This document shows positions 14,805-21,156 of a DNA stretch of 64,000 nucleotides, one piece after another. Each line of letters opens with the position of its first letter. Position 1 is the first letter of the stretch. Location of the stretch: positions 34,969 to 98,968 of the forward strand of contig CADEGF010000020.1 in the NCBI GenBank assembly GCA_902826815.1, written 5' to 3'. A program made the position numbers and the translations under genes. Under the pieces are notes generated by a model. That model searched no databases, was not told the DNA's origin, and was given only the letters and a program-made list of their open reading frames with translations. This DNA comes from an uncultured Mycobacteriaceae bacterium (GTDB lineage Bacteria; Actinomycetota; Actinomycetes; Mycobacteriales; Mycobacteriaceae).

Positions 14805-15866
14805 GTGACTTCTTCGCGCAGTGAGCCGACATGGCCGCTGATACTGGGCCGACTGACCACCCAAAAGCCGCTCGAAGTGGGCCAGGCGGGCTGGGCGATG
14901 GACCAGATCATGACCGGAGTCGCCACGCCGGCACAGATCGCGGCGTTCGGCGTGTCGATGAAGATGAAGCGGCCGACATCGGCGGAGGTCACCGAGTTGG
15001 CGGCCACGATGCTCTCCTACGCCCTTAAGGTGCCGACCGATGAGATCGGCAACGACACCGTCGACGTGGTCGGCACCGGCGGCGACGGCGCCAACACGGT
15101 GAACCTGTCCACGATGGCGGCGATCGTCGTCGCCGCTGCAGGCGTGCCGGTGGTCAAGCACGGCAACCGGGCCGCGTCGTCGCGCAGCGGTGGCGCCGAT
15201 ACCCTCGAAGCCCTCGGGGTGCGCATCGACCTCGGGCCCGAGGAAGTCGCCCGCAGCGTGGCAGAGGTCGGAATCGGCTTCTGCTTTGCGCAGAAGTTCC
15301 ATCCGTCGTACAAGCACGCGGGTGCCGCCCGGCGTGAGATCGGCGTGCCAACGGTGTTCAATCTGCTTGGGCCGCTGACGAATCCGGGTTCGCCGCGCGC
15401 CGGCCTTGTCGGCTGTGCGTGGGCCGACCTGGCCGAGGTGATGGCCGGAGTGTTCGCCACCCGCCGGTGCAGCGTGCTCGTCGTGCACGGTGACGACGGA
15501 CTCGACGAGCTCACCACCACCACGACGAGCACCATCTGGCGGGTGCAGTCGGGCACCGTCGAGAAGCTGACGTTCGATCCGGCCGGATTCGGGTTCGCGC
15601 GCGCCGACATCGCCGAGCTGGTTGGCGGCGATGCCGAGACGAATGCGGCAGAGGCGCGTGCGGTGTTCGCAGGCGCGACGGGCCCCGTCCGCGACGCGGT
15701 GGTCCTCAATGCGGCGGGCGCGATGGTGGCCCATGCGGGACTATCCAGCGGCGCCGAATGGCTGTCGGCGTGGGAGTCGGGCCTCGACCGGGCGGCCACT
15801 GCGATCGACTCCGGGGCGGCCGAACAGCTGCTCGCGCGTTGGGTGCGGTTCACTCAGCAGGTTTGA
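14805..15866 (+). CDS. trpD: Anthranilate phosphoribosyltransferase
   Basis: [35 protein letters not shown] motifs. Confidence 0.96.
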
Positions 15867-17591
15867 CGAGTCGAGCGTTTGCGCGGCGGCCAGCCGCGCC
15901 GAGCGTGCCGATGCGGCCCATGACGCCCATCGTCCCGCGCATCCAACCGGTGACGCCCATCCTGGCTCGGCCCGAACGACGCGCACACCTGGCTGGCCGA
16001 GCCAGCGCATGATCAATGCCACCTCTTCGACCAGCGCACCGCCCAACGGGGCCGGGTCGGGCAGAATCGCTTGTGCCGCAGCGCTTATCGCGTCGACCAC
16101 AGGCATCGGCGGTACGCCTCGCTGCGCGTTGCCCGCCGCCGCGAGCTGGCCGCAGCGGATCACCGCAAGGTGCCAGCCGCCGCTGCCGTCGGGGCGCGCC
16201 GCGACGAGTTCGGTGACTGCCGCCAACGCACGCAGCCGCTGACCGCGCCACAGCACGTCGATCCCGGCGGCGGCGTGATCGCGCAGCCGGGCGGCGCTCT
16301 CGTAGCGCTTGCACCCGGCGAGCTCGTCGATGTGAGCAACCACCGCCGACAGCGCGGCGTCCTCGACGCCGTCGATCAATGCCGCCGCCCGCCGCGGCGC
16401 CTCCGCGTACCCGGCGGCGAAAATCTCCCGCGGTGCAGGACATGGCGAGAGCTCACGCTCGGGGCAGCCGGGGCCGTGTCGGCCGGACCTGGCGATTCTG
16501 GTGGTACAGGTGCGCAAGCCGGTGAACCGCGCCAGCAGATCGGCGGTCTCGGCCGCGTCGGCGCGCACCCGGAACGGGCCGACGGCACTGTCGGATTTCG
16601 GCGTGCGCACGATCGACAGCCGCGGAAACGCCTCCTCGGTCAGCACGATCCACCACCACCGCTGCGGGAATTTCGACCGGCGGTTGTACGGCGGTGCGTG
16701 GGCTGCCAGCAGTCGCAGTTCACGTACGCCCGCCTCGAGGTCGTGCGCGCACTCGACGTGGTCCAGCGCGGTGGCCAGGGCGACCATCTCCTTGATCCGC
16801 GGCCGCGAATCGGAGCCGTTGAAGTACTGGCCTGCCCGTCTGCGCAGATCAACCGCCGTGCCGACATAGAGCACCTCGTCGGCGGGACCGCGGAACAGGT
16901 AGACGCCGGGCCGGTGCGGTAGGTTCGCGGCAAGCGTCCGCTTTCGGCGTTGTTCTGGCGACACGTCGGGCAGGTAGGCGCGCAGATCGGGGTAGGTGTG
17001 CACGCCCCGGTTGCCGACCCGCTCGATGAGCCCGTGCAGCACGTCGACGGTGGCCCGCGCATCGTCGAGGGCCCGGTGGGTCGGTGTGGTGGCGGCACAG
17101 AACAACCGGGCCAGCGCCGAGAGCTTCACGCTGGGGGCTTCGTCGCGGGTGAGCACGCGCCGGGCCAGCCGGACGGTGCACAACACCGGCGGACGCGGCC
17201 ACACGATCTGGCAGCGCTCCGCGGCGGCGCGCAGAAATCCGATGTCGAATCCCGCGTTGTGCGCGACGAGCACTGCGCCGCGCGCGAATTCGAGAAACGC
17301 GGGCAGCACCGAATCGATGGTCGGCGCGTCGCGGACCATCGCCGACGTGATGCCGGTGAGTTCGACGATCTGCGGTGGAATGCTGCGGCCGGGGTCGACC
17401 AACGTGGCCAGCTCGCCGAGTACCTCACCGCCGCGGACCTTCACCGCGCCGATCTCGGTGATGGCGTCGACGTTGTCGCCGTCGCCGCTCGCGCGCCCAC
17501 CGGTGGTCTCGAGGTCGACGACGACGAAGGTGGTGTCCCTCAGCGAGACGTCAGAGAACGGATCCACGTCGGCGAAGCTGAGCTGCCCCAT
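15741..17591 (-). CDS. DEDDh exonuclease fused to a GIY-YIG/UvrC-like domain (Rv2191 orthologue)
   Basis: [23 protein letters not shown] exonuclease motifs; PGVYLFRG...LYVG GIY-YIG-like motif. Confidence 0.93.
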
Positions 17592-17597
17592 GGCCTG

Positions 17598-17619
17598 AAG
17601 GTAGGCAGTGGCACCGACA
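17598..17619 (-). promoter_or_regulatory. PafBC/RecA-NDp-type DNA-damage promoter for the nuclease gene (leaderless)
   Basis: Minus strand reads TGTCGGTG-N8-TACCTT, then 6 nt, then ATG. Confidence 0.85.
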
Positions 17620-17642
17620 GCGTGACGTTGCCGCGCGGGGGA

Positions 17643-17664
17643 TGTCGGTGGTGGCCGTTACCGT
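17643..17664 (+). promoter_or_regulatory. PafBC/RecA-NDp-type DNA-damage promoter for the small Cys-rich ORF
   Basis: Plus strand reads TGTCGGTG-N8-TACCGT, followed by AGAGGA RBS and ATG 17694. Confidence 0.8.
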
Positions 17665-17693
17665 GCGACTAACTCGATCGAGAGGACGATCAG

Positions 17694-17918
17694 ATGGACG
17701 AGACCAGCGATACCGGTGCGGTCACCATCGACTGCGATGACTGCGCGGTCCGTGGCCCCGGCTGCAAGGACTGCGTCGTGAGCGTTTTGCTGGGGGTGCC
17801 GGACACCCTGCTGGAGGACGAACGCGCGGCGCTGGAGGTTCTCGCGGAGGCCGGGATGGCACCGCGGCTGCGGCTGGTGCCGATTCATCGGAAGGGCGAT
17901 TCGGGAGTCGTCGCCTAG
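17694..17918 (+). CDS. 74-aa protein with CDDC and CKDC motifs, function unknown
   Basis: Good RBS; two CxxC motifs; resembles a small conserved actinobacterial ORF upstream of ripC (from recall). Confidence 0.8.
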   Translation: MDETSDTGAVTIDCDDCAVRGPGCKDCVVSVLLGVPDTLLEDERAALEVLAEAGMAPRLRLVPIHRKGDSGVVA

Positions 17919-18072
17919 CGACACGCCTGGCAACGGATCGTGTCCGAAAAACTCTGAGAGGCTGTTAAATTTGCGTCTCTTGTTTGGACAAGGCTGATGC
18001 CGTTTCGTAACCTGTCTGAGACCTAGGACAGTTCGGGGCGACTCGCCTAACGGCAGTTTGAGGACACAAATC

Positions 18073-19197
18073 TTGACGCTCGACCGTACGCAGCGGACCA
18101 CGCGCGGAGTTAAGCGACCGTTCATACTCGCAATTTCAGGTTTGACGCTATTTGCCGGAATCCTTGCAGGCAATGTGCAGGCCGACCCGGCCGATGACGC
18201 GCTCGCAAAGCTCAACGAGCTGTCCCGACAGGCCGAGCGGACCACAGAGTCGATGCATTCGGCGCAGCTAGACCTGAACAACAAGCTGACCGCACAGCAC
18301 GAAGCCGAGGCGAAGCAGGTCGCCGATCAGGCCGCTGTCGACACGGCGAAATCGCAACTGGCAACGTTCCAGGCGGCAGTAGACAAGTTTGCTGCGGCCC
18401 AGTACATGGGTGGCAGGACCAACGGCATGGACGCGATGCTGACCGCCGACTCGCCGCAGCGCCTGATCGACCAGCTTTCCGTTCAGCGGGTGATGGCATC
18501 CGAGATGTCGGCGCAAATGAACAGCTACCGAACCATCAGCGATCAGGCAGCCAAGGCGCAGGAGGTGTCGGCGAAGTCCGCGGCCGAGGCCAAAACCGCC
18601 GCTGAGCAGGCCGCCGCGGTGCGCGCGGACCTGCAATCCAAGCAAAGCCGGCTGCAAGTTCAGATGGCTGTCGTCAAATCACAGTTCGAGACTCTGACGC
18701 CTCGCCAGCGGGAAGCGCTCGCGGCCGTGCCGCCCGCGCCTCCGCCGCCCGCCGCATTGCCGCCGACTCCCGACGACCCGGCCATCGTCGCCGCTCCGCC
18801 CGAAGCAATCCCGCCGGGTGACGTCGCCCCGCCGGAGGCCGCCATCGCGGGCGGCGAGGGCACCATGGCAGTGCAGGCCGCGCTCACCAGGATCGGCTCG
18901 CCCTACTCGTGGGGTGGTTCTGGACCCAACGCGTTCGACTGCTCAGGACTCGTGATGTGGGCCTTCCAGCAGGCGGGTGTCTCGCTTCCGCACTCCAGCC
19001 AAGCGCTGGCCCGGGGCGGCCAGCCGGTGGACATGTCGCAGATCCAGCCCGGTGACGTCGTCAACTACTACTCGGACGCGTCGCATACGGCGATCTACAT
19101 CGGCGACGGAATGATGGTGCACGCGTCCACCTACGGCACGCCGGTGAGAGTGGCGCCGGTGAACAATGCGCCGATCTACAACATCCGCCGGTACTGA
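18073..19197 (+). CDS. ripC: NlpC/P60 peptidoglycan endopeptidase with coiled-coil N-terminus (Rv2190c orthologue)
   Basis: Signal peptide, ADPADDALAKLNELSRQAE coiled coil, YSWGG...FDCSGL...SHTAIY catalytic domain; TTG start after GAGGA RBS. Confidence 0.92.
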   Translation: MTLDRTQRTTRGVKRPFILAISGLTLFAGILAGNVQADPADDALAKLNELSRQAERTTESMHSAQLDLNNKLTAQHEAEAKQVADQAAVDTAKSQLATFQAAVDKFAAAQYMGGRTNGMDAMLTADSPQRLIDQLSVQRVMASEMSAQMNSYRTISDQAAKAQEVSAKSAAEAKTAAEQAAAVRADLQSKQSRLQVQMAVVKSQFETLTPRQREALAAVPPAPPPPAALPPTPDDPAIVAAPPEAIPPGDVAPPEAAIAGGEGTMAVQAALTRIGSPYSWGGSGPNAFDCSGLVMWAFQQAGVSLPHSSQALARGGQPVDMSQIQPGDVVNYYSDASHTAIYIGDGMMVHASTYGTPVRVAPVNNAPIYNIRRY

Positions 19198-20002
19198 ACG
19201 ACGACTGCTGGGCCTGCTGCTGCTCATCGAGCTGATCGTGGCGGTGACGCTCGTCGGCAGACCGGCCGCGTCTCCTGGAATCCCGGCCCCCGCTTCGACG
19301 CCCGCCGCAACTGCCGTGGCGTCACGTACCGAGACGGCGTCTGATGGCCGCACGGTAGAGCTGATCAACCTGGGCGGCCCGCAGACACAGCCGCTGCTGG
19401 ACCGGGTGTCCGGCGCCATGGACGACGCGACCGGGGCGGTGACGGCATTCTGGGGCGCCGACTGGCCGCGCGACATCGTCGTCGTCGCAACCGGATCGGA
19501 CGAGCAGTTTCGCGCGCTGGCCGGTGGCGGATCCGACATCGCCGCCGCGACCGTGGGCGAGCGCATCGTGTTCGCTCCAGGCGCCGCAGGCATGAGCGAT
19601 TCGGCACTGCGAATCGTCTTGCGCCACGAGCTTTTCCATTACGCGGTCCGAGCCAAGACTGCAGCGGACGCCCCGAGGTGGATGACCGAAGGCGTCGCTG
19701 ATTTCGTCGCACGACCGGACGCGCCGCGGCCGGGTCCCGAGCGGTCGGCCGAGATCGCGCAACTTCCGACCGACGCCGACCTGGACACCGTTGGCGCGAC
19801 CCGCACCCTCGCCTACGACCGTGCCTGGTGGTTCGCCCGCTTCGTCGCCGACCGATACGGGACGCAGACCCTGCGGAAGCTCTACGAGCGGGCGTGCGGC
19901 CATGGCCACGTGGGCGTCGAAACTGCCGTCGCCGAGACGCTCGGCACCGACCTCGACGAGGTGCTGGTGCAGTGGCGACGCTGGCTTTCTCGGATAGCCT
20001 GA
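19166..20002 (+). CDS. Exported zinc-metallopeptidase-like protein (Rv2189c orthologue)
   Basis: N-terminal TM/signal, HELFH motif, downstream EG (WMTEGVA); start uncertain. Confidence 0.8.
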   Translation: MRRSTTSAGTERRLLGLLLLIELIVAVTLVGRPAASPGIPAPASTPAATAVASRTETASDGRTVELINLGGPQTQPLLDRVSGAMDDATGAVTAFWGADWPRDIVVVATGSDEQFRALAGGGSDIAAATVGERIVFAPGAAGMSDSALRIVLRHELFHYAVRAKTAADAPRWMTEGVADFVARPDAPRPGPERSAEIAQLPTDADLDTVGATRTLAYDRAWWFARFVADRYGTQTLRKLYERACGHGHVGVETAVAETLGTDLDEVLVQWRRWLSRIA

Positions 20003-20007
20003 CCGCG

Positions 20008-21156
20008 ATGACCCGGGTTCTGCTGGTTACCAACGACTTTCCGCCTCGTCGCGGCGGTATCCAGTCGTACCTGCATGAGCTCGTCGGCCAACTGCTGCAA
20101 TCCGGCGGCGACTACACACTGACCGTGTATGCGCCGAAATGGAAGGGCTGCGAGGAGTTCGACGAGGCCGCACGGGCATCCGGCTACCAGGTGGTGCGCC
20201 ATCCGAGCACGCTGATGCTGCCCGGTCCAGGCGTCGACGACAGGATGCGGCGGCTGATCACCGACTACGACATCGAGACGGTCTGGTTCGGTGCGGCGGC
20301 GCCGTTGGCGCTACTTGCGCCCCGTGCGCGCAGCGCGGGTGCCAACCGCGTCGTCGCCAGCACGCACGGCCACGAGGTCGGCTGGTCGATGCTGCCGGTG
20401 GCCCGCAACGCATTACGCCGAATCGGCGACGGAACCGACGTGGTGACCTATGTCAGCAGCTATACCAGGGGCCGATTCGCATCGGCGTTCGGCCCGCACG
20501 CCGCGCTTGAGTACGTTCCGCCGGGGGTGGACACCGACCGGTTCGCACCGGATCCGGCCGCCCGCGCCGAGATGCGGTCGCGCTACGGGCTCGGCGATCG
20601 CCCCCTGATCGTCTGCCTGTCCCGGTTGGTTCCCCGTAAGGGCCAGGACATGCTCATCCGCGCACTGCCCGCCATCCGCGAGCGCGCCGACGGTGCCACT
20701 CTGGTGATCGTCGGCGGCGGTCCGTACATGGACACGCTGCGCCGGCTCGCGGGGGACACCGGCGTGACCGAGCATGTGGTCTTCACCGGCGGCGTGCCCG
20801 GCGCCGAACTACCCGCCCACCACGCGATGGCCGACGTCTTCGCGATGCCGTGTCGGACCCGCGGAGCCGGCCTCGACGTCGAAGGCCTCGGCATCGTGTT
20901 CCTGGAAGCATCGTCGACCGGGGTGCCCGTCGTCGCGGGCGACTCCGGCGGGGCGCCGGAGACCGTGCTCGACGGCGAAACCGGAACGATCGTCGACGGC
21001 ACCGACGTCGGCCAAATCGCAACGGCGATAACCGAAATACTCGCCGATCCCGATCGGGCAGCCCGGATGGGAGCGGCGGGCAGGCGCTGGGCCGTCGACA
21101 ACTGGCAGTGGCGCAGACAGGCGCAGCGGCTGGCCGGGCTCCTCACGAAAACGTGA
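20008..21156 (+). CDS. pimB: GT4 phosphatidylinositol mannoside mannosyltransferase PimB'
   Basis: VTNDFPPRRGGIQSY, RLVPRKGQD, EGLGIVFLEA motifs; synteny with Rv2188c. Confidence 0.92.
   Translation: MTRVLLVTNDFPPRRGGIQSYLHELVGQLLQSGGDYTLTVYAPKWKGCEEFDEAARASGYQVVRHPSTLMLPGPGVDDRMRRLITDYDIETVWFGAAAPLALLAPRARSAGANRVVASTHGHEVGWSMLPVARNALRRIGDGTDVVTYVSSYTRGRFASAFGPHAALEYVPPGVDTDRFAPDPAARAEMRSRYGLGDRPLIVCLSRLVPRKGQDMLIRALPAIRERADGATLVIVGGGPYMDTLRRLAGDTGVTEHVVFTGGVPGAELPAHHAMADVFAMPCRTRGAGLDVEGLGIVFLEASSTGVPVVAGDSGGAPETVLDGETGTIVDGTDVGQIATAITEILADPDRAARMGAAGRRWAVDNWQWRRQAQRLAGLLTKT

Follow-up and report, generated by a model that had tools for sequence, protein, structure and literature searches.

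Predicted back-to-back PafBC-type promoters between a nuclease gene and a conserved Cys4 microprotein gene upstream of ripC in Mycobacteriaceae

In a 64-kb stretch of DNA from an uncultured Mycobacteriaceae bacterium (contig CADEGF010000020.1; the whole stretch is called the window below), a gap of 100 bp separates a minus-strand nuclease gene from a plus-strand open reading frame (ORF) encoding 74 amino acids, and inside this gap lie two divergent motifs of the type used by the DNA damage activator PafBC. The source organism is known solely from wastewater and soil metagenomes, and the window itself comes from a wastewater metagenome. The locus raises the question of whether these motifs are two working damage promoters and, if so, what the small ORF, which is placed just ahead of the peptidoglycan hydrolase gene ripC, contributes to the response. 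Our analysis suggests, with a probability of about 0.75, that the gap has a regulatory architecture of two PafBC-type promoters and that the small ORF is a member of the PafBC regulon. What is new here is a deeply conserved microprotein that would join this known regulon, whereas the nuclease half of the locus is known. The features on which the argument turns are as follows.

15741..17591, minus strand: nuclease gene (DEDD/RNase_T exonuclease fused to a GIY-YIG/UvrC-like nuclease; Pfam RNase_T, 4e-37, and GIY-YIG; NF005903)
17598..17619, minus strand: predicted PafBC-type promoter of the nuclease gene (-26 element TGTCGGTG at 17619-17612, 8-nt spacer, -10 TACCTT at 17603-17598)
17643..17664, plus strand: predicted PafBC-type promoter of the small ORF (-26 element TGTCGGTG at 17643-17650, 8-nt spacer, -10 TACCGT at 17659-17664)
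17680..17686, plus strand: Shine-Dalgarno sequence GAGAGGA of the small ORF, 7 nt 5' of the ATG, in a 5' untranslated region of ~23 nt
17694..17918, plus strand: small ORF, encoding a 74-residue acidic Cys4 microprotein of an unnamed family (ATG at 17694; CDDC-x6-CKDC)

Two PafBC-type motifs in one gap

The first-pass annotation of this DNA had described two divergent motifs with the same 8-mer and the same spacer length, and both are present in the sequence where it had placed them. In full, the minus-strand motif is TGTCGGTG-CCACTGCC-TACCTT (17619-17598), followed by CAGGCC (6 nt) and the nuclease ATG at 17591, and the plus-strand motif is TGTCGGTG-GTGGCCGT-TACCGT (17643-17664); the 8-mers and the spacer lengths are identical, and the spacer sequences differ. 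The pattern TGTCRGTG-N8-TANNNT had two matches in the window, both in the gap, and none in 100 dinucleotide shuffles. The PafBC consensus determined in vivo is tGTCgg(N10)tA(N3)T, the 5' part of which, at -23 to -28, substitutes for the -35 contact in what is termed sigma adaptation (PMC8635444). Both gap motifs agree with this consensus, with a GTC-containing -26 element, a -10 tAnnnT at N8 after the 8-mer, and no -35 element, and a sigma-70 consensus scan of 17400-18300 found no -35/-10 promoter. The annotation had also reported that the gap lacks a LexA SOS box. In agreement, we found no credible mycobacterial box of this kind there, the sole TCGAAC-N4-GTTCGA match having 3 mismatches and no GAAC/GTTC core.

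To follow the motifs across the family, we took the orthologous locus from 80 Mycobacteriaceae genomes and tolerated one mismatch in the 8-mer. The motifs proved to be conserved: the plus-strand motif was present in 78/80 loci, the minus-strand motif in 68/80, and both together in 66/80, with a spacer of 8 nt in every conserved copy. A relaxed motif had 146 matches in the 300-bp zone 5' of the small ORF and none in the remaining 890,812 strand-bp of the 80 loci. The nuclease start codon lies 6 to 9 nt past the -10 element in 66 of the 68 loci with a minus-strand motif, which is the geometry of a leaderless mRNA, and the predicted nuclease transcription start site (TSS) in the window is the A of the ATG at 17591. 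On the other strand, the ATG of the small ORF lies 29 to 31 nt past the -10 element in most mycobacterial loci, the leader between them contains a conserved cGAGAGGAc, and the TSS is predicted at ~17670-17672. Depending on the species, the back-to-back boxes stand 8 to 115 bp apart, and we therefore treat them as two separate promoters; a single phased bidirectional PafBC site is ruled out by this range. These results support the view that each motif acts as a genuine PafBC-type promoter, conserved in its own right, and we infer PafBC dependence at this locus.

The promoter of the small ORF can also be traced outside the mycobacteria. In the locus of a family member with ~50% identity (L081), the order nuclease (minus), small ORF (plus), NlpC/P60 gene (plus) is kept, and TGTCGGGC-N8-AAGTCT lies 5' of the small ORF. 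In a distant actinobacterial clade, which we sampled through 80 soil-metagenome loci (L088-L167) with 72 distinct upstream regions, TGTC[AG]G-N10-nAnnnT was found 5' of the small ORF in 65 of the 72. The ATG lies 6 or 7 nt past the -10 element in 45 of those 65 regions, a position that would make the small ORF itself leaderless there. This looser pattern had 44 matches in 638 kb of the same loci, with nuclease promoters counted in. Where the nuclease gene is adjacent to the small ORF, it also has a leaderless PafBC-type promoter (read in L130, L138, and L083). As judged from motif and gene conservation, the microprotein is thus likely to have belonged to the core of the PafBC regulon of Actinobacteria since ancient times.

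The nuclease promoter, by contrast, is already known as PafBC-type. The nuclease scored 1147 bits against NCBIfam NF005903 (cutoff, 1038), the family that also contains its orthologs Rv2191 (M. tuberculosis) and MSMEG_4259 (M. smegmatis). Brzostek et al. (2021; PMC8151990) list the M. tuberculosis motif TGTCAGTGCAGGGGCCTAACGT at 2453814-2453835 (plus strand) as "overlapping" Rv2191 (2453819-2455756) and as a PafBC_candidate, and they give TGTCAGTG-N8-TAACGT for Rv2191 together with a log2 fold change of ~3 (~8-fold) on mitomycin C. Since Rv2191 is thus on record with its motif as a mitomycin-induced PafBC candidate, the idea that the locus is an undescribed module fails for this half. Deletion of MSMEG_4259 in M. 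smegmatis gave a mild mutational phenotype and nothing more (PMC11348249). Because the motif overlaps the annotated start of Rv2191 and the leaderless geometry recurs in 66/68 species, the annotated start (2453819) is probably too far upstream and the true mRNA probably leaderless, beginning slightly downstream. The leaderless geometry would in this way correct the likely start of the Rv2191 family.

A family of small Cys4 proteins

A homology search with the small ORF product returned 1,778 homologs at E<=1e-3, every one of them named "hypothetical protein," and a profile search of 1.84 billion representative proteins returned 1,143 clusters (50% identity), of which 338 scored below 1e-10. 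The product had no match in Pfam, NCBIfam, or PADLOC, and neither Foldseek nor profile searches of the PDB yielded a significant match (best E value, 0.6; Foldseek probability, 0.06). Longer "fusion" members were set aside, as Pfam showed merely read-through into a neighboring CoA-transferase. The family consensus is IDC[DE]xCxVRGxxCxDCVV[ST]VLLGxPP...(D/E)ER-AL-VLA--GLVPPLRLV. When 118 diverse members were aligned, four cysteines (C14, C17, C24, and C27, spaced CxxC-x6-CxxC), P57, and L59 did not vary, and the C-terminal P-x-L-R motif is likewise invariant. Over a 54-codon core in 81 mycobacterial sequences, nonsynonymous variation (pN) was 0.065 and synonymous variation (pS) was 0.617, giving a dN/dS ratio of ~0.05, and third codon positions varied 5 to 9 times more than first and second positions. 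A ratio this low marks the small ORF as a genuine protein-coding gene under strong constraint.

The protein is acidic (14 D/E versus 7 K/R; net charge, ~-7). Neither a transmembrane segment nor a signal peptide was found in it, and its longest hydrophobic run is ~9 residues (VVSVLLGVP). A single metal ion, which we assume to be zinc, is most likely bound by the four cysteines, and it is from these residues only that zinc or Fe-S binding is deduced. Two known classes of protein were considered and rejected. A WhiB-like Fe-S protein would have the spacing C-Xn-C-X2-C-X5-C in place of CxxC-x6-CxxC, together with a G[VI]WGG turn and a basic C terminus, and the product is acidic and has neither a GxWGG motif nor a Pfam Whib match. 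A membrane division inhibitor of the SidA/DidA/YneA/ChiZ type does not fit a hydrophobic run of at most ~9 residues or a product with no match to a LysM or peptidoglycan-binding domain.

The protein appears to be undescribed, in that its family is unnamed and it is in no regulon list among the sources searched. The M. tuberculosis H37Rv regulon table of PMC8151990 has no entry for the gene divergent from Rv2191. The small ORF at this locus goes unmentioned in the portions of the PafBC literature searched, as do MSMEG_4256-4259 in part of that literature, and the portion searched of the Ribo-RET supplements of Smith et al. contains no entry at 24534xx-24538xx. The small Cys4 ORF is apparently unstudied, in contrast to the nuclease half.

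Gene neighborhood and transcription toward ripC

Downstream of the small ORF, the following features lead into ripC.

17920..17927, plus strand: GACACGCC box, directly 3' of the stop codon of the small ORF; conserved
17960..18035, plus strand: non-coding block with a ripC promoter-like site (TTGGAC at 17984-17989, 18 nt, TAACCT at 18008-18013; AT-rich upstream, GAGACCTA downstream)
18058..19197, plus strand: ripC, encoding an NlpC/P60 peptidoglycan hydrolase (NF038345, 627 bits; Pfam NLPC_P60)

The other neighbors encode an HExxH peptidase-like protein and a GT4 glycosyltransferase, with trpD, ctaE, and a cytochrome c gene on the opposite side; library searches of the window proteins bore out the nuclease, ripC, peptidase, and glycosyltransferase named in the first-pass annotation. 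The 3' ends of trpD (plus strand) and the nuclease gene (minus strand) are convergent and overlap by 126 nt (15741-15866). An overlap of 126 to 130 nt is likewise found in L083 and L085 and appears to be conserved.

Gene order in the distant clade distinguishes the two neighbors of the small ORF. In 45 of the 46 distant loci with enough sequence, the small ORF is followed by an NlpC/P60 gene in the same orientation. The nuclease gene lies upstream on the opposite strand in 18 of 25 such loci and is absent within the available upstream sequence in the other 7; among the 35 loci where it was detected, it is directly adjacent in 19 and 1.5 to 3.2 kb away in 16. In L083, the small ORF is parted from the nuclease gene by a gene for a CoA-transferase and by an unrelated 4-Cys ORF, and it is still preceded by its box (TGTCGGAG-N8-TAGCGT) and followed 28 nt later by the NlpC/P60 gene. 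The intervening 4-Cys ORF (L083, 3478-3738), directly beside the nuclease gene, encodes 86 residues with a zinc-ribbon-like CxxC...CxxC pattern. The small ORF thus tracks the NlpC/P60 (RipC-like) gene more tightly than the nuclease gene in this clade, and for this reason we keep the link from DNA damage to the cell envelope suggested in the first-pass annotation as a possible reading, one that is drawn from gene order. Because the microprotein is acidic and cytoplasmic-looking and has a conserved C-terminal P-x-L-R motif, we favor a metal-stabilized protein-binding adaptor as its biochemical role. That it is a small adaptor of this kind tied to the RipC or cell envelope side rather than to the nuclease is a tentative assignment, possible at best.

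The competing assignment would make the microprotein an accessory subunit or regulator of the divergent DEDD/GIY-YIG nuclease, co-induced with it for joint action on damaged DNA or stalled forks. The two genes do form a divergent pair over one regulatory gap in mycobacteria, promoters of one type precede both of them in three divergent lineages, and in one lineage a second, unrelated 4-Cys ORF stands beside the nuclease gene. The separation or absence of the nuclease gene in so many distant loci, while the NlpC/P60 gene stays adjacent, argues against such a partnership, as does the net charge of the microprotein, which does not suggest DNA binding. We therefore consider a nuclease partner unlikely.

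The small ORF and ripC may also share a transcript. Translation of ripC probably starts at an in-frame TTG (18073), with GAGGAC (18060-18065) ahead of it in a conserved gaaggacgcaaatcTTG context. Upstream of it, column identity across the block at 17960-18035 is 0.8 to 0.98 over 79 species, and a TTGGAC-18 nt-TAACCT anchor (17984-18013), below an AT-rich element (CTGTTAAATTTGC), is present in 80/80 mycobacterial loci. An Rfam scan of 15000-21000 at E<=1 returned nothing, and hence no known riboswitch or leader before ripC. We regard the block as probably ripC's own housekeeping-like (sigma-A-like) promoter plus leader. With an invariant promoter of its own, ripC would be independent of the promoter of the small ORF. 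On the other hand, an intrinsic terminator scan found none, and there is no conserved hairpin between the stop codon of the small ORF and the ripC promoter, a spacer held at 57 to 59 nt. A GACACG...CGTGTC hairpin 3' of the stop codon was rejected as a terminator, as its partner arm is not conserved. The GACACGC(C)/GACACGCC box at this position occurs in 47/80 mycobacterial loci, and a GACACGC(C) box occurs 50 to 100 nt 5' of the small ORF, upstream of its PafBC box, in 31/80 distant-clade loci. It may be a regulator binding site, and it resembles the GACAC motif of WhiA.

RNA contigs were available from four RNA sequencing runs of an isolate identical to L036 (Mycolicibacterium austroafricanum). 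In 2 of the 4 runs, contigs start at 2940 and 2959, close to the TSS predicted at ~2950 from the L036 motif (2922-2943), which fits the start near 17671 that had been proposed for the plus promoter. Contigs run unbroken for ~5.3 kb through the small ORF, ripC, and on, with a depth of 167 to 231 versus 10 to 70 on the nuclease side. Thus, in this relative the small ORF is transcribed, and the RNA extends without a break into ripC. Environmental metatranscriptome contigs from relatives, which are sparse and divergent, cover 17804-18070 and indicate that RNA is present, nothing further. The continuity of the contigs and the lack of a conserved terminator make it plausible that the small ORF transcript reads through into ripC. 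The earlier proposal that this transcript points into ripC is upheld to that extent and qualified by the invariant promoter that ripC has of its own (80/80).

In the mechanism that we propose, PafBC activated by single-stranded DNA upon DNA damage would recruit the RNA polymerase-SigA holoenzyme to each of two independent sigma adaptation promoters (-26 tGTCgg, 10 nt, -10 TAnnnT, no -35). The minus-strand promoter would yield a leaderless mRNA for the DEDD/GIY-YIG nuclease of the Rv2191 family. The plus-strand promoter, starting at ~17671, would yield a short-leader mRNA with a Shine-Dalgarno sequence for the 74-residue acidic, cytoplasmic Cys4 protein, and this transcript would read into ripC, adding a damage-inducible component atop the constitutive-looking promoter of that gene.

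Several points weigh against this account. The assembled RNA contigs come without strand, local depth, or damage condition, so that they show transcription and continuity and not regulation; moreover, the third run breaks at 2862, 90 nt upstream of the motif, and the fourth has no break at the promoters. Distant-clade -10 hexamers are mostly CACCGT, GAGCGT, and CAGCGT, in which A2 and T6 are kept and the first T is lost, which makes promoter strength in that clade uncertain. Neither a slow-grower sequence nor a fortuitum-group profile, when used as the starting point of a homology search, found a named M. tuberculosis or M. smegmatis ortholog of the small ORF. The AlphaFold model of its product has a confidence (pLDDT) of 49 when built from a shallow alignment and 63 when built from a deep one, so that the fold and metal site are of low confidence; the sole well-supported element is a helix at about residues 41 to 52. 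Finally, gene order may merely reflect an ancient conserved block, trpD-nuclease-small ORF-ripC-pimB', and an old syntenic unit of this kind weakens the argument from neighborhood.

The continuity of the RNA into ripC also bears on whether the small ORF acts as a protein at all. The plus promoter could really be a damage-inducible promoter for ripC and the genes downstream, with the small ORF serving as a leader or upstream ORF, for example a cysteine-responsive attenuator of the kind known from mycobacterial polycysteine leaderless ORFs. The small ORF has four Cys codons, it lies on the same strand directly 5' of the NlpC/P60 gene in 80/80 mycobacterial loci as well as in nearly all distant ones (45/46), no conserved terminator follows it, and one RNA contig spans both genes. 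Set against this arrangement is the strong purifying selection on the whole 54-residue core, which includes residues far from the cysteines that are invariant (P57 and L59) and the conserved helix at 41 to 52. In addition, the small ORF has its own Shine-Dalgarno sequence or is leaderless, and ripC has its own invariant promoter. A polycysteine leader ORF in particular was rejected, given an ORF of 74 codons with two spaced CxxC pairs, no consecutive run of cysteines, and a dN/dS of ~0.05 over 54 codons. A leader function is therefore very unlikely. It is scarcely credible that the plus motif is a chance or vestigial match, with the small ORF either silent or under a different promoter, since, although the contig of one RNA run begins 90 nt upstream of it, the motif is kept in 78/80 species with an invariant N8 and no background matches, holds a conserved position relative to the start codon, and is retained in the distant clade in a position for leaderless initiation.

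The microprotein among known damage response systems

PafBC controls most damage-induced genes of mycobacteria, M. tuberculosis included, and many members of its regulon are uncharacterized. With a PafBC-type promoter kept from mycobacteria to distant soil Actinobacteria, very strong constraint, and a record of apparently being missed or left unnamed in annotation, the microprotein ranks among the better candidates for a LexA-independent damage effector that is conserved and non-enzymatic. Its persistent place ahead of the RipC gene offers a concrete hypothesis for coupling DNA damage to septation, in a phylum in which we know of no SulA. In its strongest form, this hypothesis would make the Cys4 microprotein a LexA-independent checkpoint effector of Actinobacteria, induced by PafBC and, with read-through into ripC, modulating FtsEX-RipC septal hydrolysis or the divisome. 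We consider this quite unlikely as it stands.

Comparison with characterized systems places the two halves of the locus differently. The gap shares with PafBC-dependent (RecA-NDp) promoters the bipartite tGTCgg-N10-tAnnnT, the lack of a -35 element, a position immediately 5' of the gene, and an often leaderless transcript. It differs from known PafBC promoters in that two stand back to back, the second drives a gene absent from the regulon lists searched, and the pair is known here from sequence. The nuclease shows no material difference from Rv2191 and MSMEG_4259, with which it shares the NCBIfam equivalog, the neighbors (trpD, ctaE, and qcrC on one side and ripC on the other), and the promoter motif. 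The microprotein resembles Cys4 zinc ribbons and DnaJ-type CxxCxGxG knuckles in its two CxxC pairs and Gly-rich linker (CDDCAVRGPGCKDC); in contrast to these, its linker is just 6 residues long, and it has no significant profile or structure match to them.

The remaining comparison is with the damage-induced division inhibitors SulA, SidA, DidA, YneA, and ChiZ. In Caulobacter, the WYL-type activator DriD controls didA (PMC9186387). Like these inhibitors, the microprotein is small and has a promoter for a DNA damage regulator (predicted in this case), and its gene adjoins that of a division-associated hydrolase. Unlike them, it is an acidic Cys4 protein with no transmembrane segment, signal peptide, or LysM domain, and it matches none of them in sequence or fold. 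If the checkpoint hypothesis were true, the microprotein would be a functional analog of SulA, SidA, and DidA with a new fold and a new target.

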